From contig WVZY01000076.1 of assembly GCA_011772205.1 (NCBI GenBank), positions 114,567 to 178,566 of the forward strand: a DNA stretch of 64,000 nt, in the 5' to 3' direction. The DNA is from Candidatus Latescibacterota bacterium (GTDB lineage: Bacteria > Krumholzibacteriota > Krumholzibacteriia > WVZY01). The notes below the pieces were generated by a model, which saw only the letters and a program-made list of their open reading frames with translations, was not told where the DNA came from and searched no databases. This document shows, in pieces, positions 9,491-64,000 of this stretch; the stretch's first letter is position 1, and each line of letters begins with the position of its first letter. A program made the translations under genes and the position numbers.

Positions 9491-9810
9491 TGGTGTCTTT
9501 CTGTTGATGATAAGTGTTCATTCCCCCAATTCTTTGACCACGAAAAACAGCAAGCATTATGCCACCACGCAGTATCTGCTGTTTCTGCAGGTAATCTTGG
9601 GGACCACTCCCTTTCGCTGATTTCCAGTCCCTGAGGCTGATCTGGGACCCCTGCCTAAAATTTGATCGTGGAGAAATTATCGAAAAAGGCGGAGTGGAGA
9701 GCAGATGTGCTGCAAGCTACATTATATAATTGTGAATTATTATGATATAGCAAATCCAAAAGGCGTTTAGAGTGCCCATCAAATCTGATTAATTAAGATC
9801 GCTTTGGTAT

Positions 9811-10783: not shown

Positions 10784-11043
10784 GCATGACGGCTCCGTTA
10801 GCTCAACAATGACACGTTAAAAGCAACGCTGTTCCCACCCGGCTCTTGCAAACTGCAAAGGTCACTCACTCCTACAGTACGTATTTGCTGCTTCAGAACC
10901 GATTTAATCATAAAGAGTTAAGCACGTACCGGGTCTGTATTACACGGCCGGGTGCTGGCATAGTACTTGCGATCCAACCCACGAAACACCCAGTTTTTTC
11001 AATACGTTCGAAAGTAACGTCTCGCTCAAAAAGGAGATAAGCT

Positions 11044-13032: not shown

Positions 13033-13062
13033 ATTTGAGCTGATAAGCTTTTGGAGGAGTAC

Positions 13063-15141: not shown

Positions 15142-15336
15142 CCCGGATCCAAGATTGGCTGGTTGCGGGGCCTAATAAGCTAAGACGTTTAATCATAAGC
15201 GCTTCCATTGGGTGAATATCCATTGGCATTGAGGCCGCTTTTCCAATAGTGGCGGTGGTTTTGGTACAGATCGTGCAACCGCTTGAAATGGGTGAGATAC
15301 TCAGAATACGATCGGCAAGCAAAAGGATGGAAAGTT

Positions 15337-15558
15337 ATGAGCAAGTGGAGAGAATCTGATTATTCCAGCATTATCATCGGCGGCGAGGATGCGGATGTCG
15401 TGATGACTTCGGTGGAAGCAGCAGAGTATCTCAAGATGCATGTCAAAACGGTTTGTAGGCTTGCAAAAGAGAAGAAAATTCCTGCGAAGAAGGTGGGCAG
15501 TGAGTGGAGGTTCCTCAAGAGCGTTTTGGATAAATGGCTTGCCCAGGAGGTGGTCTAG
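15337..15558 (+). CDS. excisionase-family helix-turn-helix DNA-binding protein
   Basis: About 74 aa from the internal Met, with an AAGGATGG ribosome-binding site. The TSVEAAEYLKMHVKTVCRLAKEKKIP segment is typical of HTH_17/Xis-type domains. Confidence 0.55.
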   Translation: MSKWRESDYSSIIIGGEDADVVMTSVEAAEYLKMHVKTVCRLAKEKKIPAKKVGSEWRFLKSVLDKWLAQEVV

Positions 15559-15632
15559 AGAGGCGTCGCCCGTGAGATTTCACCTCTCTGCTTTCCCCCC
15601 AATGCCGGACCGATCACCACCATACCACGAGA

Positions 15633-17465: not shown

Positions 17466-17477
17466 AGGTGAATAGTC

Positions 17478-19043
17478 ATGCAAGAAGATATCCTCGTCGT
17501 CGATGACGATCCGGATGTTCTGGACATTCTAAGCGAAACGCTCAATAAGCGGGGTTATAACGTTGTGGTTGCCCTGGATGCGCAGTCTGCGCTCCGGTCT
17601 TTCAAGCGGAAGCAACCCAGCCTCGTGATCCTGGATATCATGCTGCCGGATATGGACGGCTTGGAGGTCTTCAAGCGGATGCGCGCAGACCAAGCGGATC
17701 GCTACATTCCGATCCTCTTCCTCTCGTCTAACGGCGATCTGGAGACAAAGCTAAGCGGATTCGATATGGGGGCGGAAGATTACCTGGTAAAGCCGGTTTC
17801 GCTGAAGGAATTGAATGCTAAGATCGGGAAGATTCTAAAACGCACGTCCCAGGCCCAGGCGCTCTGGGAAGAGCGCGAAGCGTTGGAAACGGAAGTAACG
17901 AAGGAGCATGAGAATTACATTCATATCAATAAGCAGCTAAAGAAGCAGGTCCTCGCTATGAAGACGCTTTTTTCCATATCGCAGGACCTGACCCGCATCC
18001 TCGAACTGGATGAATTGATCAATGCCTTTGCACTCACGATTGTTGGAGAGCTGAGAATCTCGAGTATGGCGTTTTTCGCCCTGGTGAGCGAGAACAGCAA
18101 GATCCTCAGCCTACGGGGAGTCAAAGGTTTCCGAAAGGAGAAATTCGCAGGTCTTGAAATACCCAGAGACTGTGCCTTCGTTGAATGGCTGGGAACCCGG
18201 GCCAAGCCCAAAAAGATAGTGAGGAGCAACGACCGCACGTGGGTCAAGCGACTTCCAGACATCCGGTTGGCTGCTTTCGAGTACGCAACGCCAATCATGA
18301 TCAAGGACAAGATGAGAGGAATCGTTTTCACAGGGCCAAAGCTGAGCAGGGATGATTACACACCATATGACCTCGATATGCTGCAGTTCATTTGCAACTC
18401 CGCTGGAGTCGGTATGGAGAATGCACGATTGTTTAAAGAGCTTCAGACAACGTATCTATCAACGGTAAAAACGCTTGTTTCCATTATCGAAGCGAAGGAT
18501 AGCTATACGAGGGGCCATACGGAACGGGTTGCGGAGTACGCCATAGCGATCGCAGAAAGAATGAATCTTCCCCAAGAGGAGCAAAGGCGGATCGCATTCG
18601 GTGCGGTCCTTCATGATATCGGTAAACTCGGGGTCCTGGAAAAAGTCCTCAATAAAAAGGAGCAGTTGGATACTGAGGAATGGAAGATATTGAAAGCCCA
18701 CCCCGAAGTCGGAGCCAGCATCATCGAGAATATGGAGTTCCTTACGGGAACGGTAGAACTGGTGCGGCATCACCATGAAAACTGGAATGGGAAAGGTTAC
18801 CCGGATGGGTTGAAAGGAGAGGAGATCCCAATTGGATCGAGAATCATTGCAGTCGCAGATGGCTTCGATGCAATGACAACAGATCGTCCCTACCGTAAAG
18901 CGCTAAAATGGACCGAAGCCCTCTCGACAATCAAGGAAGGCTCCGGCATCCAATACGATCCCGAAGTTGTGCGGAGCTTCGAGGAGATTATCAGAGACAA
19001 GAACTTCAGAAAACGAATGAGAGAAAAGCATTCCAATCCATAA
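17478..19043 (+). CDS. response regulator with GAF and canonical HD-GYP phosphodiesterase domains (RpfG-like)
   Basis: REC domain (VVDDDPD…LVILDIMLPDMDG…K). HD-GYP motifs are intact: YTRGHTERV, LHDIGK, HHHENWNGKGYP and AVADGFDAMTTDRPYR. GAGGTGA ribosome-binding site. Confidence 0.85.
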   Translation: MQEDILVVDDDPDVLDILSETLNKRGYNVVVALDAQSALRSFKRKQPSLVILDIMLPDMDGLEVFKRMRADQADRYIPILFLSSNGDLETKLSGFDMGAEDYLVKPVSLKELNAKIGKILKRTSQAQALWEEREALETEVTKEHENYIHINKQLKKQVLAMKTLFSISQDLTRILELDELINAFALTIVGELRISSMAFFALVSENSKILSLRGVKGFRKEKFAGLEIPRDCAFVEWLGTRAKPKKIVRSNDRTWVKRLPDIRLAAFEYATPIMIKDKMRGIVFTGPKLSRDDYTPYDLDMLQFICNSAGVGMENARLFKELQTTYLSTVKTLVSIIEAKDSYTRGHTERVAEYAIAIAERMNLPQEEQRRIAFGAVLHDIGKLGVLEKVLNKKEQLDTEEWKILKAHPEVGASIIENMEFLTGTVELVRHHHENWNGKGYPDGLKGEEIPIGSRIIAVADGFDAMTTDRPYRKALKWTEALSTIKEGSGIQYDPEVVRSFEEIIRDKNFRKRMREKHSNP

Positions 19044-19960
19044 CTCTCCCTCCACTCGTCTATAACAGATATTGTCGGTTCCCGTGCACATGCATGGGAT
19101 ATCGTCAACTGCGTTTCCGATGGCATATATGTCCTTACGCTCCATTTCCTCTTACATTTGACCGACTCGGCGACCTGCTGAACTGCCGGTTGCTGTAAAT
19201 CCAGTGGACGGACCGGGCAGCAGCCGGTGAGCTCAATTGGAAAATACCGCACGGAGAATTTCATAATCCGTATCGCTGCAATGAGATATATAAACCTTTA
19301 ATGATGATTCTGGCGGTTGCTTGGCACTTGTTTTGCGATGACGAGAAGCTGGCAATGCGAGACTTGGAGAGATGAGGGGTAAGCATGTGTGAAGTGTTGG
19401 GTTTGGGATGATGTGGTGCAACGCATAGAGTGCTTCTCATCTCCTAATGGAAAAAGAGGGAGTCGGATCAAGCGTGGATTGGGAGGAACCACGTTGCGGT
19501 CCTTGGAAAGCCAGCTTTTAGCGGCCGGACACTTCGAACGAGGCACCTAACGGAGCAGTTAGGTAATCTTAACTTCGCGGCTAGCAACTGCAGAGGGTGT
19601 TGCTAAATGACCCGCCAATCGGGCGGGCTGTTCCGACGTGCTTCAGAGAGGAACACCATCGCTTGCAGGTCTTTTCAAAAGAGCTCCCTCTTTTTTCATT
19701 GCTCGTGCAGATGCTGGCTCAATCCGGTATTGAGTGGAAGAACGCGTCCCCGGGTTCCAAGCCTTTCCGACCGGCACGGCTCCTTCGAAGATAAGGGCAT
19801 GCGCAGGACTCATCATATTCTGCACTTAGAAATGCCTTGTAACGCCTGAGCCAGATCCCTATCATTAGCATAACTCGAATGCTTAAGAGCGGTTACCGCG
19901 CCGGCTAAGTATGGCTTGTTTTGCGGATAACTGCTTGCGCTTCTCCCTCTTCATGGCGGT

Positions 19961-45639: not shown

Positions 45640-47334
45640 GTGCACACGACTTTTTATTCCGGTGCCATACTGGGTGTTGAGGGATTTCTCGTCGAAGTAG
45701 AGGTGGATATTTCAAGAGGAATCCCATGTTTTTCTCTCGTCGGGCTCGCGAATACGGCCGTCCGTGAAAGCCGGGAGCGGGTCACTGCGGCAATCAAGAA
45801 TTCTGATTTGGAATTTCCGCTCGAAAGAATAACCGTGAACCTCGCACCGGCGGACATCAAAAAAGAAGGGGCGGCTTTTGACCTTGCCATTGCGCTGGGC
45901 ATTATCGCTGCTTCGGGTCAGCTCGAAAGGGCGGACGCGTCGCCGCCAATGGATGTCTCCGCTGCAGGAGGGCCTATCCAAGCTGGCCACTCTCAAGCAC
46001 ATGAGAAGCACCGCCGGCGCATGTTCACATTGGATGAAAAGGTCATGCGGCGAGCTCGGAAAACTATTTTTCTCGGCGAGCTGGCGCTGGATGGAAACCT
46101 GCGTCGTGTGAAAGGGGCCTTACCCATCTTATTGCATGCCAGGGAGGCTGGATTTGAGCGGGGCATTGTTCCTGAGGAGAACTTTGGCGAAGCGCTGGTC
46201 GCCAAAGGGATCGAAGTATTTGGGTGCCAGCGGCTCCGTGATGCCGTTCGCGTCGTTCTGGGACGAGGGTTCATGGATGTGGATGATGGAAAACTCATTG
46301 TGGATGTGGATGAGGGCATTCGCCGTAAAGCAAGAGACACTGCCTGCCGTCGAACCGAAGATTTTCCCGCGGAAGAGGGGCTGGATATGGGGGAGGTGAT
46401 TGGACAGGAATCCGCAAAACGGGCGCTAACAGTCGCGGCTGCAGGCGGGCACCACGTGCTTATGGTCGGTCCCCCCGGGGCGGGGAAGACGATGCTGGCA
46501 AGGCGACTGCCGTCGATCCTGCCCCCTCTCGATGACCGGGCTGCCCTGGAGACGACCATGATCTATAGTATCGTCGGCCTGCTCGATGGAACGGGCCTCA
46601 TCTGGAATGGCCCGTTTCGAGCACCTCACCACAACGCAAGCGATGCCGGGCTGATCGGAGGCGGAAACATCCCCCGCCCCGGAGAAGTGACCCTCGCTCA
46701 CAACGGGATTTTGTTTCTCGACGAGCTCCCAGAGTTCAAACGGCACGTGCTCGAGACGCTCAGGGAGCCTTTGGAGGCGGGGAAAATCACGATTTCGCGT
46801 GCGAAGCAAGCGGTGACATTTCCAGCGAGATTCCAGCTCGTTGCCGCCATGAATCCTTGTCCGTGCGGGTATCTGGGGAGCCGGGAGCAGCAGTGCCGGT
46901 GCAGCCCTCTCCGGGTGGAAAAGTATTTGGGGAAAATATCTGGGCCGCTTTTGGATCGCATATCGATCCACGTATTCGTTCGGCCCGTAGAAACGGCCGC
47001 TTTCAGGAAACCTCAAGCTCGCCACGAGAGTCCTTCGATCCGCGAGGCTGTAATCGAGGCCCGCGAGATTCAGCAGCGTCGATCAAGAAAATCGCCCGTT
47101 GCTGCATGCAATGCCCGGCTGCCGGAAGGTCTCTTCAAAGCGGTTTGCCGGATGGAAGCGTCAGCCGAGGAACTGTTGTACAAGGCCCAGAAACAACTCA
47201 GAATCAGCGCTCGGGGCCGGAGCCATGTGATTCGGATGGCGAGAACGATCGCGGACCTCGAAGGAGCAGACAGGATTGCTGCGCATCATCTCGCTGAGGC
47301 GGTCCAGTACAGGCTCAGAGAACTTCCTGTCTAG
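45640..47334 (+). CDS. yifB: YifB/ComM family Mg-chelatase-like AAA+ ATPase
   Basis: Lon-like N-domain, AAA+ Walker A (GPPGAGKTMLARRLP), an arginine finger region, and a C-terminal ChlI-like segment. GTG start with GAGGAGGTG. About 45 extra residues are inserted in the N-domain. Confidence 0.85.
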   Translation: MHTTFYSGAILGVEGFLVEVEVDISRGIPCFSLVGLANTAVRESRERVTAAIKNSDLEFPLERITVNLAPADIKKEGAAFDLAIALGIIAASGQLERADASPPMDVSAAGGPIQAGHSQAHEKHRRRMFTLDEKVMRRARKTIFLGELALDGNLRRVKGALPILLHAREAGFERGIVPEENFGEALVAKGIEVFGCQRLRDAVRVVLGRGFMDVDDGKLIVDVDEGIRRKARDTACRRTEDFPAEEGLDMGEVIGQESAKRALTVAAAGGHHVLMVGPPGAGKTMLARRLPSILPPLDDRAALETTMIYSIVGLLDGTGLIWNGPFRAPHHNASDAGLIGGGNIPRPGEVTLAHNGILFLDELPEFKRHVLETLREPLEAGKITISRAKQAVTFPARFQLVAAMNPCPCGYLGSREQQCRCSPLRVEKYLGKISGPLLDRISIHVFVRPVETAAFRKPQARHESPSIREAVIEAREIQQRRSRKSPVAACNARLPEGLFKAVCRMEASAEELLYKAQKQLRISARGRSHVIRMARTIADLEGADRIAAHHLAEAVQYRLRELPV

Positions 47335-51611: not shown

Positions 51612-54047
51612 TCATCGTGCTTCGGCCTCGCCGGGTCCCTCAGAGCCGCCCACTTGTGAGTTCTGATTGGAGATCGTCGAGTTCGAGTCGGTCCCAATGG
51701 GTGCGTCGATCGGTATTCCCTCATCAATGAACCACTTGAGCAGTTTGGCCTTCCGGATGATTTCCGCTTCGCCCGTGGAGGATAACAGGATGCTTACAAA
51801 TCCTTCCGCCCTCGCCGTCTCACCTAATCGCGCCAGGGTGAGCGCGGTACCGTAAAGCGCTTCAGGATTGTCGGGAGCGTAACCGACGATGGTCATGTAG
51901 ACGTCCCTTGCATCCTCCAGACGGCCTAGACGCGTGAGGCTCGTTGCCTGCCCGAGCCGTGCAGCGGTGAAATGCGGTGCCTGGTTGACGCACGCGTTGA
52001 AGAGACCGAGCGCCGTCGAGTCGTTGCCTGCTTCGTGTTCGTTTCTGGCGTTCCCGTACAATAGCATGAGGTTAGTGATTCGTTCGTGAAAAAGCTCGAG
52101 GCTATCGTTATTCCGCACGAGAATCTCGTACTGGTAAATTGGTGGATGGTCGGTGGAAAAGATCGGCTTGATGTGGTCCGTAACCTCGAACAAGCGGTGC
52201 CCGTCGTTCTCGTAGACAAGAGCGAACCGCTTGAGCGCTTCAGGGAAAAAGTGCATCTTGTAAGCCACCGAAGCAGGAATAAGCTGTTTTCGGCCGCAAA
52301 GATAACGGGGAGAGAATGTTGTTCCGTCGAGTGCCAATTCGACCGAGTATAAGACATATTCAACCCCGTTTGCCCGGCAGGTTCTATAGAGCTCTTCTTC
52401 GCTTCCGTAATATTTTCCAAGCATCTCGACGGTTTTTTCGATCGTCTCCCTGGATGTTCCCCCCGAAAACAACAGCGTCGTTCGTCCTCCGAAGGTGGAG
52501 AGAAGGGATGAAATAGCCGGGAGACCCAATATTGGATCTCTCACGGATGTTCGGGTGAGCAGGAAGCGAACGAGGTTCCTGTCAGGATTCCCAATGCTTA
52601 CCCGAAGGAAATCTCCGCCGATCGGATTTAACCCGGCCCGCCGCGCGATCCACCGGGATAGGTCCAGTCTACCGTCAGGCGATAACGTCTGCGCCAGAAT
52701 GAGGATCGCTCCCAACGCTATGAACGCACTCCGTTTCTTCAAGTGTCGACCGATGGCGTAAAAGGACAGGGCGACCAGAGGAAATGCTCCAATCACAGAA
52801 AGCGGAAGCCCGCTTCTGTCGAAAAAGTAGAGCCCCCAGATAAGAAGAGCCGCGACAACGGCTGGAATCAAGATGTTTGGGGGCTTCCTTCGAGTTGCAG
52901 TGACGCTGGTGGGGGGCGGCGTTGGGAGTGACGTTTCTTTTTGGAAAGACAGCGCGCCGGAGACCATCGCGGGAATCAAGAACAGAAAGGGGAAAAGAGC
53001 GATGAAGATATTGAATTCGGAAGGCGCTGCATGCTCTTTTGACCAAACGTAGCGAACTGCATCGGGGAGAGTCGAGGGATCGATCGGTTTAGCCGCCAGG
53101 TAACGGAGCCTGTAATAGACGTACTGAAGAGCGGGAAAAGATCTCGACGCACCGAATTGGAGCGGTCGAAATATCGCTGAAAGGATCAGCGCTCCCACGA
53201 TCACGTAGAGCATTCCTGGCCAAAAGCGTCTTTCCTTCAGAGGCAGCTTTCCAGCGAAGAAGGCGTAAAGCACTGCAGAATAGACGAGTGACGCCGGCAC
53301 TGCAAATGCAACTCGATGGGCGCTGAGGTACGGGAGCAGCAAGGCTCCGGCAACGAAAAAAACTCCATGAAGGGAGAGCAGGATGCGTTTGTTTCTAAGG
53401 TTTTCTTCAGGCCATATGGCATAGAGGAGAGCGAATATGGCGATGTAATAGACCGAGGCTTCCCACATGGTAAGGAGAACAAAGAAAGACAGGGCAGCGG
53501 TTACCGCAACGGGGATCGTAAATCGATTTTTCAAGCGGAGGATGAGGAAAAGGTGCAGGCTCACTAGAACGGCGGCGTATTGGACGTGGAGAAAAGTAGT
53601 TCCGTTTGTGTCATCTATGAGGGGACTGGAAAGCGCGACGAGGAAACCGGCGAAAAGCGCTCCAGCCTGGCTTCGCCACAAAGTGTACGAGAGAGCGTAC
53701 AGGGTGAAAACGAGAAGCGACGAAAACAGCCTTGTGAATTGCCTTACGAATTGTCGCTCATCTGCTTCACTGAAATACCTGACCAGTCTGTATACGTAGC
53801 CGGTGAAATACTCTACTCCAAGGGGCCTTTCCAAAGCAGGCCGTACTCCTTCCGGCCAGGCTGCTTTCTGATCCAGAACGGGGGCGGATCCCGTCTGGCT
53901 GATGCTGACCATGTACCTGTAGTTGGTCGCGGAGACGCCGTCGAAATAGGGGTATTTCGATTTGTCGGCACTGGCAACACGTATGATGACGGACACTGCG
54001 TACAGCAGGACTAGGGAAGCTATAATGAAGTACTTGGGCAGTTTCAT
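51612..54047 (-). CDS. large polytopic membrane protein with C-terminal TPR repeats (GT-C-like glycosyltransferase or TMTC/PMT-like candidate)
   Basis: About 15 predicted TMs over ~600 aa, then TPR-like repeats (…ALGLFNACVNQAPHFTAARLGQATSLTRLGRLEDARDVY…). Confidence 0.5.
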   Translation of the reverse strand: MKLPKYFIIASLVLLYAVSVIIRVASADKSKYPYFDGVSATNYRYMVSISQTGSAPVLDQKAAWPEGVRPALERPLGVEYFTGYVYRLVRYFSEADERQFVRQFTRLFSSLLVFTLYALSYTLWRSQAGALFAGFLVALSSPLIDDTNGTTFLHVQYAAVLVSLHLFLILRLKNRFTIPVAVTAALSFFVLLTMWEASVYYIAIFALLYAIWPEENLRNKRILLSLHGVFFVAGALLLPYLSAHRVAFAVPASLVYSAVLYAFFAGKLPLKERRFWPGMLYVIVGALILSAIFRPLQFGASRSFPALQYVYYRLRYLAAKPIDPSTLPDAVRYVWSKEHAAPSEFNIFIALFPFLFLIPAMVSGALSFQKETSLPTPPPTSVTATRRKPPNILIPAVVAALLIWGLYFFDRSGLPLSVIGAFPLVALSFYAIGRHLKKRSAFIALGAILILAQTLSPDGRLDLSRWIARRAGLNPIGGDFLRVSIGNPDRNLVRFLLTRTSVRDPILGLPAISSLLSTFGGRTTLLFSGGTSRETIEKTVEMLGKYYGSEEELYRTCRANGVEYVLYSVELALDGTTFSPRYLCGRKQLIPASVAYKMHFFPEALKRFALVYENDGHRLFEVTDHIKPIFSTDHPPIYQYEILVRNNDSLELFHERITNLMLLYGNARNEHEAGNDSTALGLFNACVNQAPHFTAARLGQATSLTRLGRLEDARDVYMTIVGYAPDNPEALYGTALTLARLGETARAEGFVSILLSSTGEAEIIRKAKLLKWFIDEGIPIDAPIGTDSNSTISNQNSQVGGSEGPGEAEAR

Positions 54048-54078: not shown

Positions 54079-54852
54079 TTAATATCCGGTGGGGGCGGAA
54101 ATGAATTTGCAGACTATCGGAAATCGCTCTCGAATATGTCTCGCCAGCGCTTTCAGGCCCACGGTTTCGCTCGCATAATGCCCCGCGTAGATCACGTTGA
54201 CGCGCGCCTCCTTGGCGAAATGATACACTACGTGCGATGTCTCACCCGTGATCAGCGTATCACAACCTTCTTCCTTTGCATTGGTGGCGAGAAAACCGGC
54301 ATCACCCGACACGATGCCGACCTTTTTCACCCCCCGAGGACCAAAGGGAAGCATCTCCACCTGTGCTTCAAGCTTTTTCTCTAATCTCTTCACAAGTTCT
54401 TCTCGACGCAAGACTTTTTCAGGTCTGGCAATCACGCCGATTTTGGTTCCTTTGTAAGAACCGAATTTTCCGAGATTCTCGAAGCCGAGGATTCTCGAGA
54501 GCTCGACGTTGTTTCCCACCACGTCGTGACCGTCCAGGGGCAAATGTGACGCGTAAAGTGAGATCCCGTTCGCCAGGAGAGCAAGAATGCGTTCGCGCAT
54601 CACACCGATTATGCGTTGATGAGTTCCGCTCCAGAACAAACCGTGGTGCACGATGAGAATGTTAGCCCGATTTCGAGCAGCAGCACGAATCGTTTTGAGG
54701 CAGGCATCTACCGCAAAAGATGCTCTTGAGATTCTGGCGGAACCCTCCACCTGCAGGCCGTTAACCGAGTCATCCGTGATGGAAGTAACGGACAAGTACT
54801 CGTTGAGATAGCGGATCAAGCGATCTCGCGAAACGGATTTTTCCTTTGCCAT
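54079..54852 (-). CDS. Nif3-like dinuclear metal-centre protein (GTP cyclohydrolase 1 type 2 homologue)
   Basis: NIF3-family motifs (ILIVHHGLFW…, LYASHLPLDGH, IYAGHYASE). Confidence 0.8.
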   Translation of the reverse strand: MAKEKSVSRDRLIRYLNEYLSVTSITDDSVNGLQVEGSARISRASFAVDACLKTIRAAARNRANILIVHHGLFWSGTHQRIIGVMRERILALLANGISLYASHLPLDGHDVVGNNVELSRILGFENLGKFGSYKGTKIGVIARPEKVLRREELVKRLEKKLEAQVEMLPFGPRGVKKVGIVSGDAGFLATNAKEEGCDTLITGETSHVVYHFAKEARVNVIYAGHYASETVGLKALARHIRERFPIVCKFISAPTGY

Positions 54853-54946: not shown

Positions 54947-57900
54947 CTATTGCATTCTGTCGTAATCTCTTAAACGCACATACAGCGTTGGCTTGGTGAT
55001 ACCGAGAAGCTCGGCTGCCTTGGTCTTTCCTCCCACAAAATCGACCATTTTTTTGGCGAGAATGGGCTCGACTTGCTGAAGCAACGGGTTGGCTTTGGAG
55101 TAGGTGCTTCGCTCGATGATCTGCTGGATGAGCGCCTCGAGGCTTTTGTGCGGCTGGCCTCCCGATTCGGATACCTTTTCCAGGAAGTCCTCAGGCAGTG
55201 AACCGGGATGAATCACGTCGTCATCGGATAGCAACACGATTTGTTCGATTAAGTGCTGGAGCTCCCGCACGTTTCCTTCCCATGGGGCTTTCTGGAGAAT
55301 CCTTATTGCGTCCGGAGCAATTGTCTTTCGGAGTACTCCGCTTTCAGAGCATCGTTTTTCCAAATAATCCAGCGCGATGGCAACGATGTCTTCTTTTCTA
55401 TCGCGCAGAGGTGGTATCCGGATTTGAAGGACGTTCAACCGGTAATATAAATCCTTTCTGAACTTTCCCTGCTCGCAGAGTTCTTCCAGGTCTTCATTGC
55501 TGGCCGCGATGATGCGAACATTCGAATGGATCTTTTTCGTTCCACCGACGCGATTGAAGCTCTTGCTTTCGAGGAAGTTCAGTAGCTTTGTCTGTATCGT
55601 CATCGGAATGACATTGACATCGTCGAGAAAAACCGTCCCCCCGTCCGCTTTCTCGCACAAACCGAGTTTGCGCGCCACTGCGCCGGTGAAGGCACCTTTT
55701 TCGTGTCCGAAGAGCTCACTTTCGAGAAGGCTTTCGGGGATCTGAGCACAGTGGATGTCCTGGAACACCTTGTGGGATCTGGGGCTGTTGTAATGAATTG
55801 CCCGCGCAAGCTCCGTTTTGCCCGTGCCGCTTTCGCCGATGATGAGGATACCGGTGTCTATGTCCTTGACTTTTTCGATGGTCCGGAAAATTTTTCTCAT
55901 CGATTCACTCTTGCCGATGAGGTTCTCGAAGCGGTACTGATCTTCGACCTGCGCTTTGAGGGCCACGACTTCCTCCACCAAGCGTTCCTCTTTGTGAACG
56001 TGCTCTTCGAGATGGAACATCAGCGTCAAGATCCCGGAAATATGTCGACCAAGGGCTGTGAAAAAGTTCAAGTTGTCTTTTGAAACGGGGAGCGAATCCT
56101 GAGGCATATAGAAGAGGAGGCACCCCAAATCTTCCCTTATTGCTTTGAGCGGGATACACACAAATCCTCCCCCTCCCACATCAATCTGGGGTGCGAGATC
56201 CAACGCGTCTGGTGAGCTGCTTTCCAAAACGCGACCCAGAAGGAGCGTTCTGTTCATTAGTTCCGTCAGGCCCTCATCCTGAAGAGATTTCTCCCTGCCT
56301 CCCGCGTCGATAACAGCGAATCGACCGTCTTCTCTCTTGAGAATGAGGCGGCATTCGTCGGGACCAATGATATTCCGGGTGAGGTCCAGAATTCGTCTGA
56401 AGCACTCATTCCTGTCGAAGGGGGGTTCGAAGAGCAGGCTGAGCTCGTAAAAGGCTTTGAGGAGATTCTGGGTTTGGCTCCCTGCGATGTAGGTCCGCGC
56501 AGGATGCGCCCTGATCTCCTCACGAAGAGTGATGATCTCCTCCGGAACCTCATGACCGAAGTCTGAGTGGATCTGGCGCTCTGCCCTGTCCAGGTATTGC
56601 ATCGCGTCGAATGTGTTGGCGCCGCGAGCGTGAAGGAGCCCAATCTTCGCGAGCGCCGCTGCAGCGAGACGGTTGTTCGATAATGTTGTAAAGGCGCTCG
56701 CAGCTTTTTCATAGTATTCCAGCGCCTCCATCAGCTTGTTCTGCTCTGTTTCCAGGTCTCCCAATATCATGTTGATTTGCGCGCTCTCGTATTTTGAGCC
56801 GATCAGCGTGGCGAGCTCCGATGCTTTTTCAACGTGCTCTCGTGATTTGGCATACATTTTCTGCGTGAGGTAGAGGGTGGAAAGCCGCCTGTGAGAGCCA
56901 AGCTCTACGTTTGTCGATCCGAGTTCGCGCGATATTCGTAGGGAGTCCAGAAAGTATTTTTCGGCTTCCAGATATTGATCCCGGACGGTGGCAATAGCTC
57001 CCAGCGTGTTGTAAATCTCTGCTGTGAGCATGGCTATGCCCAGCTTGGAGCTGATTGCCATGCTGTCCATGCACCGTTTTTCCGCTTCCTCATAATCGTG
57101 CATTTCATAAGAGAGAAGGGCGAGATTTAGGTAAGCGGCGGCTATTCCCACCCGATTGTTTTGCCGCTGTTTGATCTCGAGGCTCTTTTTATAATATTCG
57201 AGAGCTTTATCGTATTCACCTTTGGTTTGATAGGCGAGGGCAAGGTTGTTGTAGCTGCCCGAGAGCGCATTGATGTCGCCGGCGTTCTCTCGGAGCATGG
57301 CGCTCCTGTTGTAGTATCGGATTGCCTCGTCATAACGGCTCGTGTTGAATTGGACCACTCCTGTCAGGTTGAGTGCCTGGGCAACGATGAGCGGGTATTG
57401 ACTCGGATTGAGAGTTGTGAGACTGAGCTTGCAGCACTCGAGGGAATTTTCATAGTTGCCAAGGCGGTAATGGAACCAGCCGATATCATTTAGAAGCTGC
57501 GCCTGCTCTGGCAGCGGGAGCGCTGACTGAAGCTCTTCCCTGACGGCACTGAGAAGGTCGAGGGATCTCTTGTATTCTCCTCTGGACTCCCAGGTATCGG
57601 CCAGCAAACGGCATATGCTGCTTGCGATCTCTGCGTTCTCGCGCCTACCCTCGATTCCCACCTCATCGAGGTTTTGCTTGGCAGTGAGCAGCAAGTTTTC
57701 GGCCTCCCCTGACCGTCCCTTGTCGATCAGATCGATGCTCGCCTCGCGGAGAATAAAGAGCTTGTCGGCTATGGCAAGCGCCTTGTGAAGTCCTCGGTGA
57801 ATGAGTTTCATGCAGTGCTCGAGAATGAGCGCATCCCTGTTGTCACGCCTCGTCTCTCTCAGATAGGACACGCAGTGCTCCGCGGCAAGATGTGTTTCCT

Positions 57901-59680
57901 CCCCTTCCAAAAGGTGGTGGACGAGGAATAGCGCAGGGAAAGCGCTGCGCTCTTCAACATGAAGAGCCACAGTGCGGTGGAGGTTTCTTCTTCTCTCCGG
58001 GGGAATGCTCCGATAGACCAGACGCCGAATCGAAGCGCTTTTCGGGCTGAGCAGGATCGAGACACCTATGCCCGTCCCGTTGGAACGGTATGAAATGCAT
58101 ATCAAATCCAGCGCTGCAAGGCGGTGGATGCACCTGTGGATTTTGCCATCAGATCCAGGAAAAATCGAAAGGGCAATCTGCAGTGGTATCGCAAACTGTG
58201 CAACTGAAACGAATTCCAGGAGTTGCCGTTCTTCTTCCATGAGGCAACCGAGGACTTCTTCGGTCAACCGCTCGAGGGAAGAGGATTTGAATGGACGGTG
58301 GTCGGGTTCGAGGTAACGGACAATACCATTCAAGTATGCTTGCAGCCGGACGGACGGGTGCTCTGCTCTCGTCGTGGTTACGCCGGGCGGGTGCTTGTGG
58401 TGCTCCGGGACGGGCGTCTCTAGCTTATCTGCTGAATCGGATTCATGATACTCGGCAGGCAGATGGAATTCGTGAACTCGCTCTCCGAATTTCCCTTTCA
58501 AGTGATCGATAAAAGCGCTCGACTCCTTCGAAACTCGTGCTGGGTCGATCGTCAGGAGCAGGAGCGTTTCGGAAAGACTGATGTCCTCCTCTAATCTTTT
58601 GGAGATACGGGAGCAGGTCAACGCCCGATCCGTTGCATCGTCAATGATCCACAGGAATTTCGAAGAAGCAGCTCCTTTGGGAACCGTTTTCTTTCTGGTC
58701 TTCCCGGTTATATTCCACTCGTCGGGCCAAAGAACCGTCCAACCACCGTTTTCCGGCAGCGATAGTTTTTCAGCCGCCAATTCAACGATCGTGCTCTTGC
58801 CGGAAAAAGCTTCCCCCTTCAGTACGATGAGGCGGTGACCTTCGGAGACGGCATCGAGCGCATCCTGCACCAAGATTTCCGCCTGCAATGCCGGAAACAT
58901 TTCGGCACGAGAAACGGAGAACGGTATGAGCTGCTGCGGCAAGGGTTCACCGAAGAGTTTCTCGTGCAGAGCCGATAGCGTAACGGTGCTGCCGGATTCG
59001 ATACTGGATCCGGATTCCATAATGATATTCATGAACTCGTCTTCTTGCTGCAATGCCGCGATTGCACCCTTCTTGCGGAGCGGTGCCAGCAAATGTATGA
59101 AACGGGAAATGGCGCGCGGGTGGATGGAAATGGTGGCAGGCAACGTGAGTGCAGTGCTTTTCGATAGTTGAGCCTGGGTGTCGGCTTCGACCTTCGCTGG
59201 ATCGTGCCCACCAGATAACGCAAAAGGAAGTATATAGGCGTTGGGGAGGATGAAAATTCTATTATCCTCGTCAACTCCGATAGAGGCAGGGGACAAGTGG
59301 GGAGCGAAGAAATTGTAGTTTTCCAAATGGGCCAGCGTTTCGATGAGCGTTCTGATCATTTCCTCAAGCGGCAGAAAATCTTGTGGAATGTTTTGGAGCA
59401 GCCGCAAATAGGGCGTGAAAAGTTCGATGCCTCCGTCCGCACTCGTCGCGAAAAGAATTTGCGGGCAATTCGATGGAGAGATTGCCGAAGCGCTGCTGCC
59501 CAGGAATTCGAGGACACCGGGATCAACTGTCGTTCGGTTGATCGTTTGGGTGCGGAGTCGGAGGAATTTTCTTTCGCTGACCAGATCGACAAAAGCGGCG
59601 ATTCGCCAAATTCCGGCCTGGATCTCTTCTTCGATTTGTTCGAGGTTTTTCTGGTAGGGATGGGTGGAACGCATCTCCAT
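54947..59680 (-). CDS. giant multidomain sigma-54-dependent transcriptional activator
   Basis: 1577 aa. N-terminus shows a kinase-like catalytic-loop/DFG pattern with HRD and DFG replaced (…HLSPASIGVDEDNRIFILPNAYI…). Then P-loop Walker A GEAFSGKST and Walker B FLWIIDD, a long TPR array, and a GAF domain. The sigma-54 interaction domain has GESGTGKE, ESELFGHEKGAFTGA and an arginine finger. C-terminal Fis-type HTH (AELLGITKPTLYVRLR). Confidence 0.75.
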   Translation of the reverse strand: MEMRSTHPYQKNLEQIEEEIQAGIWRIAAFVDLVSERKFLRLRTQTINRTTVDPGVLEFLGSSASAISPSNCPQILFATSADGGIELFTPYLRLLQNIPQDFLPLEEMIRTLIETLAHLENYNFFAPHLSPASIGVDEDNRIFILPNAYILPFALSGGHDPAKVEADTQAQLSKSTALTLPATISIHPRAISRFIHLLAPLRKKGAIAALQQEDEFMNIIMESGSSIESGSTVTLSALHEKLFGEPLPQQLIPFSVSRAEMFPALQAEILVQDALDAVSEGHRLIVLKGEAFSGKSTIVELAAEKLSLPENGGWTVLWPDEWNITGKTRKKTVPKGAASSKFLWIIDDATDRALTCSRISKRLEEDISLSETLLLLTIDPARVSKESSAFIDHLKGKFGERVHEFHLPAEYHESDSADKLETPVPEHHKHPPGVTTTRAEHPSVRLQAYLNGIVRYLEPDHRPFKSSSLERLTEEVLGCLMEEERQLLEFVSVAQFAIPLQIALSIFPGSDGKIHRCIHRLAALDLICISYRSNGTGIGVSILLSPKSASIRRLVYRSIPPERRRNLHRTVALHVEERSAFPALFLVHHLLEGEETHLAAEHCVSYLRETRRDNRDALILEHCMKLIHRGLHKALAIADKLFILREASIDLIDKGRSGEAENLLLTAKQNLDEVGIEGRRENAEIASSICRLLADTWESRGEYKRSLDLLSAVREELQSALPLPEQAQLLNDIGWFHYRLGNYENSLECCKLSLTTLNPSQYPLIVAQALNLTGVVQFNTSRYDEAIRYYNRSAMLRENAGDINALSGSYNNLALAYQTKGEYDKALEYYKKSLEIKQRQNNRVGIAAAYLNLALLSYEMHDYEEAEKRCMDSMAISSKLGIAMLTAEIYNTLGAIATVRDQYLEAEKYFLDSLRISRELGSTNVELGSHRRLSTLYLTQKMYAKSREHVEKASELATLIGSKYESAQINMILGDLETEQNKLMEALEYYEKAASAFTTLSNNRLAAAALAKIGLLHARGANTFDAMQYLDRAERQIHSDFGHEVPEEIITLREEIRAHPARTYIAGSQTQNLLKAFYELSLLFEPPFDRNECFRRILDLTRNIIGPDECRLILKREDGRFAVIDAGGREKSLQDEGLTELMNRTLLLGRVLESSSPDALDLAPQIDVGGGGFVCIPLKAIREDLGCLLFYMPQDSLPVSKDNLNFFTALGRHISGILTLMFHLEEHVHKEERLVEEVVALKAQVEDQYRFENLIGKSESMRKIFRTIEKVKDIDTGILIIGESGTGKTELARAIHYNSPRSHKVFQDIHCAQIPESLLESELFGHEKGAFTGAVARKLGLCEKADGGTVFLDDVNVIPMTIQTKLLNFLESKSFNRVGGTKKIHSNVRIIAASNEDLEELCEQGKFRKDLYYRLNVLQIRIPPLRDRKEDIVAIALDYLEKRCSESGVLRKTIAPDAIRILQKAPWEGNVRELQHLIEQIVLLSDDDVIHPGSLPEDFLEKVSESGGQPHKSLEALIQQIIERSTYSKANPLLQQVEPILAKKMVDFVGGKTKAAELLGITKPTLYVRLRDYDRMQ

Positions 59681-59836
59681 GATCGGCCTCCTCGCTGGCG
59701 TGGACGCTGGCCAGATGAGGTAAAGAAATTTTACAGGGTAAAAATATTTTACGAGAACAGAGATATTTGTAAAGTCTTTTTTGTTGGGAAGGGAGCTTGC
59801 AACTTGGCTCCAGCTATGTGTTTAAAAGAGAAGGTA

Positions 59837-60190
59837 TTACGGAAAGTAAAGAATTCTTCCGCAGCTCTCGCAGGTCAAGATCTGGTTTTTATTTTGGAGC
59901 GATTGATAGGAGGTTGGAAGCGTTACAAAGCACCCCAAACAGAAATTGTCTGTGACCGGGACGATGGCCCTGTCATAACTGCGGGCGACCCTTTCATAGC
60001 GGTTGAGGAGTTGAGGGTCGATTCTCTTGGCCAACTTGTCTCGGGCTTCTTGGAGTTTGGCGACGCCATCGAGCTTGAATCCCATTTCTTTCAGCTCGGT
60101 GGAAGTATCACTGTCTCGGGCTTCCTTGATCAACAAGTCAAGGTCTTGCAGCGCAACGAGTAGTTTTGCCTGATCTTCCATGGCTCTCAC
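59837..60190 (-). CDS. C4-type zinc-ribbon domain protein (COG1579/DUF164-like)
   Basis: Coiled-coil N-terminus plus C-terminal CxxC…CxxC (CLGCFVTLP…CESCGRILY). Confidence 0.6.
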   Translation of the reverse strand: MRAMEDQAKLLVALQDLDLLIKEARDSDTSTELKEMGFKLDGVAKLQEARDKLAKRIDPQLLNRYERVARSYDRAIVPVTDNFCLGCFVTLPTSYQSLQNKNQILTCESCGRILYFP

Positions 60191-60645
60191 GAGTCGAAAA
60201 TCGCCTGGAGCTCGGGAAAGCTGGTGACTTCCATGAGCTTTCTCCGCTTGCTGGCGTTCTTAATGAGCTCCACTACGCACCCGAGCACCTGGAGGTAGAG
60301 GTTTTCCTTGTCCTGTGGTGGGGCGATGATGAGGAAAAAGAGGTGCGTGGGCTTTTTATCGAGTGAATCGAAGTTGACTCCGTCAGCGGACCGAGCAAAC
60401 AGTACGGTAAGCTCCTGGATCGCAAGTGTGCGTCCGTGAGGAAAGGCAACACCCTTCCCAATGGCGGTGCTCCCGAGACTTTCACGGTTCAGCAGCATTT
60501 CGAGGATAATATCCCTGTCTTTTAACCGGCACTCCCTGCTGATGCGGTCCACCATTTCTTCCAATGCGCTCTTTTTGTCCCGGGCTTGGAGGTTGAAAAT
60601 GCAGAGGGATTCCTGAAAATACTCTCTGAGTTCTTCTGTTTTCAT
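60187..60645 (-). CDS. ptsN: PTS EIIA-type-2 protein (nitrogen-regulatory EIIA-Ntr-like)
   Basis: EIIA-2 fold with the phospho-His motif GKGVAFPHGR. Start chosen at MKTEELREYF. Confidence 0.7.
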   Translation of the reverse strand: MKTEELREYFQESLCIFNLQARDKKSALEEMVDRISRECRLKDRDIILEMLLNRESLGSTAIGKGVAFPHGRTLAIQELTVLFARSADGVNFDSLDKKPTHLFFLIIAPPQDKENLYLQVLGCVVELIKNASKRRKLMEVTSFPELQAIFDS

Positions 60646-60771
60646 TGGCCTGGAAATGGTTGTTCGCGAGCGCATTTGAGAAATACCAGCTGGAAAATAT
60701 CAGAAAATGCGATTATCCTCAACCCCAAAGTGAGCGAAATCTGCTCGCTCTTGATACCGACATTACCACCA

Positions 60772-61770: not shown

Positions 61771-62895
61771 ATGGGAAACCTCAAGAGCATCGAGCGGTCA
61801 TCGAAGCGCGCACTGATGCGCGCCATGGGGAAGATCATCCGAACGCAAAAGCTATCCCCGGAGGAGATCCTCCGGCGTCATCCGGAGCGGATCCTCATCA
61901 TCCGGCAGCATAATCAAATGGGCGATATGGTTCTAGCCATTCCCGCGCTTCGCGCCGTGAAAGAATCGTTTCCCAGGTCAGAAGTCGGTATCGTCACCTC
62001 AACCATCAATAGAGATGTAATGCTCAACAATCCGTACGTGGATCACCTCTTTGTTTACGAGAAACAAAGAGTCCACAGCCTTCCTGGTTTTGTCATGGCA
62101 ATCCGCCGGAAGCGGTTCGATTTAGTGATTGTTCTCAACACAGTATCGTTCTCTTTCACAAGCGCTGTTCTCGCCCTTCTTTCCGGAGCAAAGATCCGTG
62201 TTGGGTCTTCCTCTTTGCCGTTCGGCAGTGAAATCGGCGGCTCGTTCTACCATTTGGAACTGCCGCTTCCTGGTGAAGCGGAGCTGCGGGAAATGAGCGA
62301 GACAGAACACAATCTTTACCCCCTGAGGATGCTGGGCATCAGTACGAACGATCTTTCGCCCCTTCTGGTTCCTTCCCTGGAAAGCGAGGTTTGGGCGCAG
62401 GATTTCTCATCGGAGTGCTGGAGATCCGATCAACTCAAACTCGTCGTGCACCCCGGGGCAGGCAAGAAAGAGAATATATGGGCGCCGGAAAAGTTCGCCG
62501 CCGTTGTTAATCGATTGAATTCCGTTAGACCCGTGGGGCTCGTCGTCGTTTCGGGACCGAGGGATGCAAAACCAGTAGCTGCATTCCTGCAAAACGTATC
62601 CGTGCCGGGCAAGGTACTCGAAGCACGATCGATTGGCGATGTTGCGGCCGTTATGAAAAAATCCGATCTCGTTATTTGCAATGACACGGGTACAATGCAC
62701 GTCGCATGCGCCGCTGGAGCACGTACCCTGGGCGTGTTCGGACCAACCGATCCGAAACGCTGGGCACCGAGGTCCCCAAACCTTTGCACAATCCAAGCGC
62801 CGGAAAAGCGTTTGGATCTGCTGACTTGGGAAATGGTTTTCGAGAAAGCGCTGGAAGCACTGCAGCTAGTATCTCGGACTCAATATGATCTTTAG
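61771..62895 (+). CDS. glycosyltransferase family 9 (ADP-heptose:LPS heptosyltransferase-like)
   Basis: GT9 N-terminus (RILIIRQHNQMGDMVLAIPALRAVKESFP) and a C-terminal GT-B domain (…ICNDTGTMHVACAAG…). Start uncertain: TTG at 61714, or ATG at 61771 or 61816. Confidence 0.75.
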   Translation: MGNLKSIERSSKRALMRAMGKIIRTQKLSPEEILRRHPERILIIRQHNQMGDMVLAIPALRAVKESFPRSEVGIVTSTINRDVMLNNPYVDHLFVYEKQRVHSLPGFVMAIRRKRFDLVIVLNTVSFSFTSAVLALLSGAKIRVGSSSLPFGSEIGGSFYHLELPLPGEAELREMSETEHNLYPLRMLGISTNDLSPLLVPSLESEVWAQDFSSECWRSDQLKLVVHPGAGKKENIWAPEKFAAVVNRLNSVRPVGLVVVSGPRDAKPVAAFLQNVSVPGKVLEARSIGDVAAVMKKSDLVICNDTGTMHVACAAGARTLGVFGPTDPKRWAPRSPNLCTIQAPEKRLDLLTWEMVFEKALEALQLVSRTQYDL

Positions 62896-64000
62896 CGGAA
62901 GCACCTTGTTCGCCGGTACATCGATTTCGGAGCTCCACATATGAAATCCCACCTTTTTGAGCGACAGCTGGTGGGGGCCCGCTTCTACTGATATAGGAGT
63001 CTTGATTGGCGTTATGCCAATGAATTTTCCGTCGATATAGAACTCCGCTCCTTCGGTCGCTGCGAGAGAGATCTGGCCTTTTAGCTTTTTCAGAACAATC
63101 TCTCGCCGTGACAATTCTCCGGAAACGATCCTTACTACTTCCACATACGGCTCGTAATGCGGATTCTTGCACTCGAGTTTATGGCGGCCCTTTACTAGCT
63201 CGACGGAGATGGAGGGCGGCGTATCACCCACGTACTTGCCGTCAATATGAACTTCGGCATGTGGGTATGCCGACACTGACAGCCACCCTTTTTTGACGGC
63301 GGGTTTGGATTCGGATTTGCTTGTCTCGATCTCCGGATCGCCGACGGCTTGGTCACTTCCGGGGGAAGCTGCGGAATCACTTTCGGCTTTCCCTCCCTCA
63401 GCCGCTGAATAAGCCGTCTTCGATCCATCACGCGCCTTACTCCTCGGTGGCACCGGATTCTCTGAAGGCATCGAATCTGACAGCGCTGAACGCGAAGTAT
63501 CGACCGCTGCGCCCAACAATCTTTCCAGAGAATCCACCGATGCCGCTTTGCCGTTGTTTGGAACGCCCAGGGAAGTACCTTCTTCCATGCTGCCTGCCAT
63601 TACTTGATTCTCTCCCGGGTTTGGCGAATGGGATGCATTGAAGAGATTCGAAATTTTATTCCGCGCACCCGGCGCCAAAGCGATAAGCGCTGCAGCCGCA
63701 ACGGCTGCGGCAAGCGCTCCGAAAGTTGCGATGCGTTGCCTGGAAGATTTTCTCCTGACGAGTCCCGCTGCCGACGTCGATTGCAGTGCAATAGTCGATG
63801 AGTTGGTCAACAAAAGGGACTTCAGATTGTCTTGAGTTTCTTTGAGCCGTGACGGTCCGAGGAATTCTTCGACAGCGATCCTAAACTGCGACGCCGTCTG
63901 AAATCTGGCATCGCGGTTCTTGCTCAGCGCGCGGGAAAGGATCGCTTCGACCTTCGGGGGAATTTCGCAATTCATACGTTTGGGAGAAGGGACACTCCTG
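62866..64000 (-). CDS. Ser/Thr protein kinase with C-terminal PEGA domains, partial (N-terminal kinase domain runs off the window)
   Basis: The visible part begins in the kinase C-lobe (…IPPKVEAILSRALSKNRDARFQTASQF…), followed by a TM, an S/A/P-rich linker, and two PEGA-like beta domains (HAEVHIDGKYVGDTP and GAEFYIDGKFIGITP). Confidence 0.7.
   Translation of the reverse strand, partial: RSVPSPKRMNCEIPPKVEAILSRALSKNRDARFQTASQFRIAVEEFLGPSRLKETQDNLKSLLLTNSSTIALQSTSAAGLVRRKSSRQRIATFGALAAAVAAAALIALAPGARNKISNLFNASHSPNPGENQVMAGSMEEGTSLGVPNNGKAASVDSLERLLGAAVDTSRSALSDSMPSENPVPPRSKARDGSKTAYSAAEGGKAESDSAASPGSDQAVGDPEIETSKSESKPAVKKGWLSVSAYPHAEVHIDGKYVGDTPPSISVELVKGRHKLECKNPHYEPYVEVVRIVSGELSRREIVLKKLKGQISLAATEGAEFYIDGKFIGITPIKTPISVEAGPHQLSLKKVGFHMWSSEIDVPANKVLPLKIILSPRY

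Follow-up and report, generated by a model that had tools for sequence, protein, structure and literature searches.

We describe an activator of sigma-54 RNA polymerase, an enhancer-binding protein (EBP) of 1577 aa, which is encoded on the minus strand of a 64,000-nucleotide stretch of a Candidatus Latescibacterota bacterium genome (contig WVZY01000076.1 of assembly GCA_011772205.1, positions 114,567 to 178,566; hereafter the window). The activator is real and intact and displays six modules, namely a pseudokinase, a STAND nucleotide-binding oligomerisation domain (NOD), a tetratricopeptide repeat (TPR) array, a GAF domain, a sigma-54 AAA+ core and a helix-turn-helix (HTH). The original prediction, made from the letters of the window, had claimed this same order, with a kinase-like region whose motifs are replaced at one end and a Fis-type HTH at the other, and it is borne out by the Pfam scan, by profile searches and by structure models. 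We consider it probable that the protein is a lineage-specific EBP in which a MalT-like STAND switch governs a NifA-like output.

The gene is complete, with an ATG start codon preceded by a GGAGG sequence 8 nt upstream. An identical protein (P0034) is present at NCBI under the name 'MAG: tetratricopeptide repeat protein [Candidatus Latescibacteria bacterium]', where MAG stands for metagenome-assembled genome, and a Logan contig of the same strain (L001) differs from the window by one base over the overlap.

The sigma-54 AAA+ core carries a family-wide Walker B variant

EBPs work as AAA+ rings that act via a GAFTGA loop. In the activator, the Pfam scan placed Sigma54_activat at aa 1254–1420 with 218.3 bits against a cut-off of 20.2 (E 6.6e-65) and AAA_lid_14 at aa 1426–1506. 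The Walker A motif reads GESGTGKT (aa 1282–1289) and the GAFTGA loop is intact (aa 1329–1334; GAFTGA or GSFTGA in relatives), while the family alignment locates the arginine fingers R1408 and R1414 within FRKDLYYRL and the sensor II residue R1472 within NVREL. The best sequence relatives in the PDB are NifA, NtrC1 and FleQ, with E-values of 1e-65 to 1e-77. The named EBP equivalogs (NtrC, NifA, PrdR, RtcR and others) were nevertheless ruled out as identities, every score being far below its cut-off.

The protein had been described beforehand as a textbook activator. The GAFTGA, Walker A and Walker B motifs on which this description was based are all present; the Walker B motif, however, reads FLDD (aa 1351–1354, with D1353-D1354 at 55619–55624 of the window, minus strand) and not FLDE, the D-E pair being the textbook form. 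The D-D pair is found in all 14 members of the activator's clade in the family alignment. Among the best 120 AAA+ matches in a large protein database, it occurs only in 15 fragments (62–78% identity), which look like C-terminal pieces of the activator's own family, and D-E was read in 100 of the 100 other close EBPs that were parsed. A sister clade (P0025, P0031 and P0032; n = 3) has an N-E Walker B together with GKD in Walker A. The position equivalent to N64 of PspF is a His in the activator, and this His is also seen elsewhere in combination with D-E. Among the sequences compared, D-D alone is thus diagnostic for the activator family, and the His at the PspF N64 position is not.

D-D is a variant motif in which a carboxylate is retained. 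The clade-wide replacement of the catalytic Glu by D1354, set against the uniform D-E of the other parsed EBPs, leads to one alternative, in which the AAA+ core would bind ATP and hardly hydrolyse it; instead of being a conventional activator, the protein would serve as a slow timer, or it would trap or repress the sigma-54 holoenzyme. PspF variants at E108 form stable complexes with sigma-54, a behaviour that would be in line with such a function. We nonetheless hold an ATPase-poor core to be very unlikely, as Asp still supplies the carboxylate and as conservation extends to the GAFTGA loop, both arginine fingers and sensor II, an argument for a working motor under purifying selection.

Pseudokinase and STAND folds precede the TPR array and the GAF domain

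The N-terminal region gives no sign of its ancestry in sequence comparisons. It has no Pfam match at E<=10, a PDB profile search returned no kinase, and hhalign against the kinase of P0055, a relative described below, gave a probability of 0.2%. We built an AlphaFold2 model of aa 1–275 from a 17-sequence alignment (pLDDT 77, pTM 0.75), in which the order of strands and helices is that of a protein kinase, and Foldseek with this model retrieved a kinase-like fold with an E-value of about 1e-6 and a TM of about 0.45. The kinase relationship is visible by fold comparison only. Catalytic positions were assigned via the family alignment together with the secondary structure of the model, and not by residue-level superposition. 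Assigned in this way, neither a glycine-rich loop, nor a conserved beta3 Lys, nor a conserved alphaC Glu is found in the N-terminal domain. HRD is replaced by APH (aa 125–127), HRD-LKPxN becoming APH-LSPAS, with an Asp there in three relatives only; DFG is replaced by LPN (aa 145–147), in which P146 is invariant; and the activation segment is cut down to LPNAYILP. The model has low confidence in the loop at aa 155–181. We regard the domain as a pseudokinase because a kinase fold is present and yet the canonical catalytic residues are all lost. The structure model, the Foldseek search and the alignment all agree with the earlier guess of a kinase fold in which HRD and DFG are replaced.

The P-loop and the Walker B motif of the STAND module that follows are intact in the window's protein, with GEAFSGKST at aa 289–297 (K295) and WIIDD at aa 344–348 (D347-D348). 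The Pfam model nSTAND_NTPase5 matches aa 271–378 with 33.8 bits against a cut-off of 34, and in the relatives P0005 and P0018 nSTAND3 scores 31.7 and 30.0 bits against a cut-off of 27.2. In an AlphaFold2 model of aa 266–705, built from a 15-sequence alignment (pLDDT 82, pTM 0.78), the P-loop domain is followed by a disordered insert, by a helical domain and by a winged helix, after which a helical arm runs into the TPR array. The tripartite fold of a NOD is thereby found in the predicted model, and the closest structural match of the fold is the regulator MalT. H568, within LHRTVA, is invariant across the family and sits just after the predicted winged helix.

The TPR array is presumed to be the sensor of the STAND module; several TPR models match it, including that of MalT (Table 1). 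The GAF domain scores 18.1 bits in the whole-protein scan and rises to its cut-offs when the segment is scanned alone (Table 1). GAF models are matched by 9–11 of 12 relatives, and the family profile leads to the PDB GAF domains of the sigma-54 regulators 3k2n and 4g3k.

Loss of function in the N-terminal half was weighed as a further alternative. Here, the pseudokinase and the STAND module would be decayed relics serving as scaffold only, the GAF domain alone would regulate as it does in NifA, and the protein would be an ordinary GAF-type activator with an inert N-terminus. The loss of all kinase catalytic residues fits this view, as do the Walker A Lys of the STAND module, lost or changed in several members, and the nSTAND score that lies under the Pfam cut-off. 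However, all relatives, down to about 20% identity, retain the full length of the roughly 1050-residue N-terminal region, which contains invariant positions (W25, D32, P146 and A148; G289, D347, R563 and H568). Both regions have confident predicted folds, and the STAND Walker B D-D is intact, as is the full P-loop in the window's protein. An inert N-terminus therefore appears quite unlikely to us, and control by the STAND module is the reading that we keep.

A rare family related to kinase-STAND-TPR-GAF fusions

An exhaustive HMMER search with aa 1–700 against 1.84 billion cluster representatives returned 33 proteins, 8 of which are 1477–1552 aa long and have the same architecture. A search with the full-length protein yielded eight relatives of 1512–1574 aa, half of them at 60% identity and half at 42–45%. 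The gene is carried by 5 of 185,579 species representatives of GTDB, three of them Latescibacterota/Latescibacteria MAGs and two Candidatus Krumholzibacteriia. Judging from these searches, the activator family is rare and confined to Latescibacterota and Krumholzibacteriia genomes.

Proteins of a related build exist outside the family. P0043–P0046 (1414–1427 aa; JGI name 'Nif-specific regulatory protein') likewise have an N-terminal P-loop STAND module followed by TPR, Sigma54_activat and HTH_8, but they lack the 260-aa pseudokinase and share 28% identity over half of the length. P0055, a metagenomic protein of 1662 aa, begins with a true PF00069 kinase, which is followed by AAA_16, TPR, GAF and Sigma54_activat. 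A hidden Markov model (HMM) of the family (aa 1–1240) aligns to the STAND region of P0055 with an E-value of 2.7e-12. The simplest history is that Pkinase-AAA_16-TPR-GAF-sigma54 proteins of this kind had an active kinase, which most likely decayed into the pseudokinase. The fusion, which had been flagged as unusual, is indeed unusual but not unique, as other STAND-TPR-sigma54 proteins of 1400–1660 aa occur, one of them with a true Pkinase.

Fusions of a kinase with a MalT-like region (PknK), as well as kinase-GAF-His-kinase fusions, were described long ago (PMC1262709). The N-terminal domain order of the activator is shared with the Mycobacterium tuberculosis PknK (kinase plus MalT-like region), with the cyanobacterial kinase-GAF-His-kinase 'dual kinases' (PMC1262709) and with P0055, which has in addition a homologous STAND region and a sigma-54 output. 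PF00069 is recognisable in all of these, whereas the kinase of the activator is invisible to sequence methods and has lost its catalytic residues. The kinase-homology domain of MviN (Rv3910) has no sequence relationship with the pseudokinase and stands in another protein context.

On the output side, the activator resembles NifA and the group III GAF-type EBPs in having a GAF domain, an AAA+ core with GAFTGA and a Fis HTH output module. NifA (9qq6) is the best PDB match (E 2e-77), and the alignment starts inside the N-terminal, GAF-region part of NifA. The activator differs from NifA by about 1050 extra N-terminal residues (pseudokinase, STAND and TPR) and by its D-D Walker B; it scores 303 bits against a NifA equivalog cut-off of 529, and no nif genes are found nearby. 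MalT differs in that it has a LuxR HTH and recruits the sigma-70 polymerase, whereas the output of the activator is a second ATPase, the sigma-54 AAA+ core, with a Fis HTH; in addition, MalT has neither a kinase-like nor a GAF domain and the activator has both.

An ancient gene order around the activator

The features of the locus are collected in Table 1. The neighbours named in the original prediction, a Nif3 gene, a zinc-ribbon gene and a PtsN-like EIIA gene, are all supported by Pfam matches. The start of the Zn_ribbon_9 gene overlaps the stop of the EIIA gene upstream of it. The Zn_ribbon_9 protein has two CxxC motifs (CLGC and CESC), scores 49.7 bits with the CdsZ model NF047363 against a cut-off of 275 and is about half as long as FlgZ/CdsZ, in which a long coiled coil stands before the zinc ribbon (about 250 aa altogether). 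This short form (114–120 aa) is found in all relatives. The EIIA protein scores 75.9 bits with the PtsN equivalog TIGR01419 (cut-off 138.7) and has the His of the FPHG motif. On the other side of the activator, the gene for the 811-aa protein is the last conserved one of the cluster; it follows nif3 in L002–L004, and a similar-sized open reading frame (ORF) comes after nif3 in L009.

Table 1. Features of the activator, its locus and the associated promoters. Positions refer to the window unless a locus of a relative is named; bit scores are followed by cut-offs where available.
Feature	Position	Strand	Evidence and remarks
Multidomain sigma-54 enhancer-binding protein, 1577 aa, complete gene	54947..59680	-	ORF list and translation
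Pseudokinase domain, N-terminal, aa 8-250	58931..59659	-	Protein-kinase fold (predicted structure), catalytic motifs replaced
STAND module (NOD), aa 266-575, with P-loop domain, helical domain and winged helix	57956..58885	-	
Helical arm and TPR array, aa 576-1050	56531..57955	-	TPR_12 (1.7e-31) and TPR_MalT (1.9e-15) across aa 716-1030; TPR_1/2/8/10 also match
GAF domain, aa 1089-1215	56036..56416	-	Scan of aa 1060-1250 alone: GAF 22.8 bits (22.4), GAF_3 27.0 bits (27)
Sigma-54 AAA+ core and lid, aa 1254-1506	55163..55921	-	Sigma54_activat 218 bits, AAA_lid_14 68.6 bits
Fis-type helix-turn-helix, aa 1550-1573	54962..55033	-	HTH_8 21.8 bits (22)
Sigma-70-like promoter TTTACA-16-TAAAAT (59773-59746) and two 15-bp palindromes	59720..59773	-	Best of region, 10/12
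FHA-operon sigma-54-type promoter	L002 908-923, L003 857-872, L004 674-689, L006 1777-1792, L007 1815-1830		
Nif3/DUF34 gene, 94 nt downstream of activator	54079..54852	-	PF01784 6.1e-60
811-aa protein, hydrophobic membrane-like stretches, C-terminal TPR repeats	51612..54047	-	TPR_16 and TPR_19 matches
Zn_ribbon_9 (DUF164, FlgZ/CdsZ-like) protein, 117 aa	59837..60190	-	PF02591 37.4 bits (29.1)
PtsN-like EIIA-2 protein	60187..60675	-	PF00359 3.9e-28, 98.7 bits

Divergently from the cluster and upstream of it lie RsgA, a family-9 glycosyltransferase (GT9) and then a Ser/Thr kinase with PEGA domains that is cut by the window end; its C-terminal part, with two PEGA domains, occupies 62866–63975 (minus strand), and the full 601-aa gene is present at 182–1987 of L001. 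From the same-strain contig and the relatives, the full block could be read as FHA, Metallophos phosphoesterase and Pkinase-PEGA / GT9 and RsgA / EIIA, Zn-ribbon, activator, Nif3 and TPR membrane protein. Loci at 60%, 45% and 31–36% identity, with a Krumholzibacteriia genome among them, retain this block, and synteny is conserved across 8 loci from at least 7 species.

It had been proposed that the activator gene was apparently inserted between nif3 and the zinc-ribbon gene, and a shared gene order in relatives had been named beforehand as the outcome that would speak against this. The same order was found in every relative examined, down to 31–45% identity, and because of this a recent insertion is refuted. 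A recent horizontal acquisition is further ruled out by the G+C of the gene (0.52–0.535), which equals the value of the whole window, with no compositional anomaly. The housekeeping neighbours (RsgA, Nif3, a PPIase and tRNA-Val) are kept in all relatives, which indicates vertical descent. To judge from these comparisons, the splitting of nif3 and the zinc-ribbon gene by the activator is ancient and fixed.

The same neighbourhood bears on the idea that the protein is an anti-phage STAND sensor of the Avs/NLR type with a transcription activator as its effector. PADLOC gives generic AAA+/HTH (RtcR/PspF-type) and TPR matches and no Avs/NLR model, the structure matches the regulator MalT best, the base composition shows no anomaly and the housekeeping surroundings are conserved, where a defence island would be variable. 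We rejected the defence reading on the PADLOC result and the housekeeping synteny, and we give it almost no weight.

A gene for a DUF164 zinc ribbon with nif3 immediately upstream of it is a widespread pair, and the DUF164 homologue FlgZ/HP0958 of Helicobacter pylori shields RpoN from turnover (PMC3372290). The assumption that nif3 and the COG1579 zinc-ribbon gene are usual neighbours is thus correct as regards the pairing; the usual order is nif3 and then the zinc ribbon, and at the activator locus it is reversed, the zinc-ribbon gene preceding nif3. The suggestion of a sigma-54 regulatory locus finds a similarly partial echo. A PtsN-like EIIA and a FlgZ-like DUF164 protein speak for it; against it, no rpoN gene lies within the 64-kb window, the window has no sigma-54 promoter adjoining the activator gene and the EIIA protein stays below the PtsN cut-off.

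Promoters at the activator locus and beyond

The best promoter candidate upstream of the activator is of the sigma-70 type (Table 1). Its -10 element lies inside a palindrome, GTAAAATATTTTTAC (59752–59738), and a second palindrome, GTAAAATTTCTTTAC (59734–59720), follows three bases on. This pair occurs nowhere else in the window, nor does it recur within any of the related loci. Both palindromes are conserved where the remaining intergenic region diverges, and the first of them can still be read in the most distant loci (about 31% protein identity). Their position over the promoter fits an operator for negative (auto)regulation, and the activator's own HTH could be a candidate binder. The terminator scan gave no terminator-like site after the activator gene or between nif3 and the gene for the 811-aa TPR membrane protein. 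These three genes probably share a transcript that starts at the activator's sigma-70-like promoter.

A search for sigma-54 promoters upstream of the neighbouring operons had been suggested. In the window, -24/-12 matches are at chance level (48 against 52.6 expected). One match inside ptsN (60445–60460) was discarded as a promoter and put down to coding conservation of a GKGVA motif, because it occupies the same ptsN position in the relatives L002–L004. Beyond the activator cluster, a sigma-54-type promoter, TGGCAT-N5-TTGC(C/G), was found upstream of the FHA gene, 58–90 nt from its likely start, in five species from two lineages. Its GG and GC are invariant and its spacer is variable. In L007, the listed start of the FHA ORF overlaps the sigma-54 element; the gene probably begins further downstream than listed. 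The FHA gene heads the FHA-Metallophos-Pkinase/PEGA operon that adjoins the activator cluster, and in none of the loci examined does another sigma-54 promoter lie closer to the activator. By this proximity only, the conserved promoter of the FHA, phosphoesterase and Ser/Thr kinase (PEGA) operon is the most plausible candidate for a target of the activator.

This arrangement would also allow a phospho-loop, by analogy with the mycobacterial system of the MviN pseudokinase, FhaA and PknB. The PEGA kinase would phosphorylate the pseudokinase or its disordered loop, the FHA protein would dock there and the activator would drive the sigma-54 promoter of the FHA-phosphoesterase-kinase operon. The scheme is drawn from the proximity of the genes only; the low-confidence loop showed no conserved Ser/Thr, the operon promoters have no upstream activating sequence in common, and many other activators are likely to be encoded in these genomes. 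We see it as an unlikely explanation, and the STAND switch remains our preferred reading.

Further sigma-54 elements were seen elsewhere in the window. A perfect TGGCAC-N5-TTGC match, of which chance alone would give about 0.1 in 64 kb, stands at 19322–19336 (plus strand). Within the 600 nt after it, no ORF of at least 100 aa begins, the next large gene being an M16 peptidase at 19961, and a small RNA or a long leader could be transcribed from the element. Two other good elements are TGGCATAATGCTTGCT at 9549–9564 (minus strand), 59 nt upstream of an unknown 254-aa gene (8726–9490), and TGGCATAGTACTTGCG at 10956–10971 (plus strand). The latter stands 73 nt upstream of an operon (11044–19043) for a 662-aa unknown protein, a 696-aa receiver-domain protein and two HD-GYP-type (HD_5) proteins. 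The window also encodes, at 45640–47334 (plus strand), a 564-aa Mg-chelatase-like AAA+ protein of the YifB/ComM type (ChlI, Mg_chelatase and Mg_chelatase_C), which is not a sigma-54 activator despite faint Sigma54_activat matches in the precomputed annotations of L001.

Discussion

MalT and Apaf-1 work as switches in which a ligand brings about nucleotide exchange and oligomerisation. We propose that the activator would operate on similar lines. At rest, the TPR arm and an ADP-bound NOD would keep the protein closed, as in MalT and Apaf-1. Either the TPR array or, as a docking module, the pseudokinase would detect a ligand or a partner protein, and this would permit nucleotide exchange and self-association. 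Self-association would raise the local concentration of the AAA+ cores and in this way favour the ring that remodels sigma-54 RNA polymerase. In such a scheme, the GAF domain would be a second, NifA-type gate on the AAA+ core and the pseudokinase would provide a docking or regulatory surface.

Several observations weigh against this reading. In the motor itself, ATP hydrolysis may be slow or altered, a slowed or differently controlled reaction being suggested because the Walker B motif is D-D. The HTH_8 match falls just below its cut-off in the whole-protein scan; the homologous segment scores 28.8 and 32.7 bits in the relatives P0025 and P0026. The STAND Walker A Lys is replaced by N or R, or lost, in 5 of 17 sequences (P0042, P0013, P0018, P0032 and P0026), and because it varies NTP-driven switching is perhaps not family-wide. 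Besides, the known stoichiometries of STAND oligomers and EBP hexamers differ. On the side of the targets, no sigma-54 promoter was found beside the activator gene in the window, and the FHA-operon promoter was read in five relatives, the site of the strain itself being expected about 2.9 kb past the window end. A shared upstream activating sequence was looked for before the FHA-operon promoters and none was found, and the GTAAAA-N3-TTTTAC palindrome of the activator promoter is absent there.

A broader version of the proposal would make the activator the hub of a closed 'eukaryote-like' circuit, conserved across two candidate phyla. The pseudokinase-STAND receptor would be read by the PEGA kinase, the FHA protein and the phosphoesterase, the activator would drive their operon, its two oligomerising ATPases (the STAND NOD and the AAA+ ring with its D-D Walker B) would be coupled, and the FlgZ-like and PtsN-like proteins, whose genes lie directly upstream, would tune sigma-54. 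We regard a circuit of this extent as quite unlikely.

Altogether, the activator is a lineage-restricted variant of a multidomain sigma-54 activator, related to kinase-STAND-TPR-GAF fusions, and its notable features are a pseudokinase hidden from sequence searches, the D-D Walker B of the whole family and a conserved putative operator. Comparable architectures are already in the databases, and current understanding is not overturned. As a rule, a single small sensory domain controls a sigma-54 activator. A switch of the MalT/Apaf-1 type stacked with a pseudokinase and a GAF domain before the AAA+ motor would show how a STAND 'signalosome' and a ring ATPase can be coupled, while the Glu-to-Asp change that the whole family shows at Walker B amounts to a natural experiment on the EBP catalytic glutamate. 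The cluster of PtsN-like, FlgZ-like, activator and Nif3 genes gives comparative support to the proposed and poorly understood link between DUF164, Nif3 and sigma-54. For Latescibacterota and Krumholzibacteriia, known here from metagenome-assembled genomes only, the activator provides a first regulatory handle.

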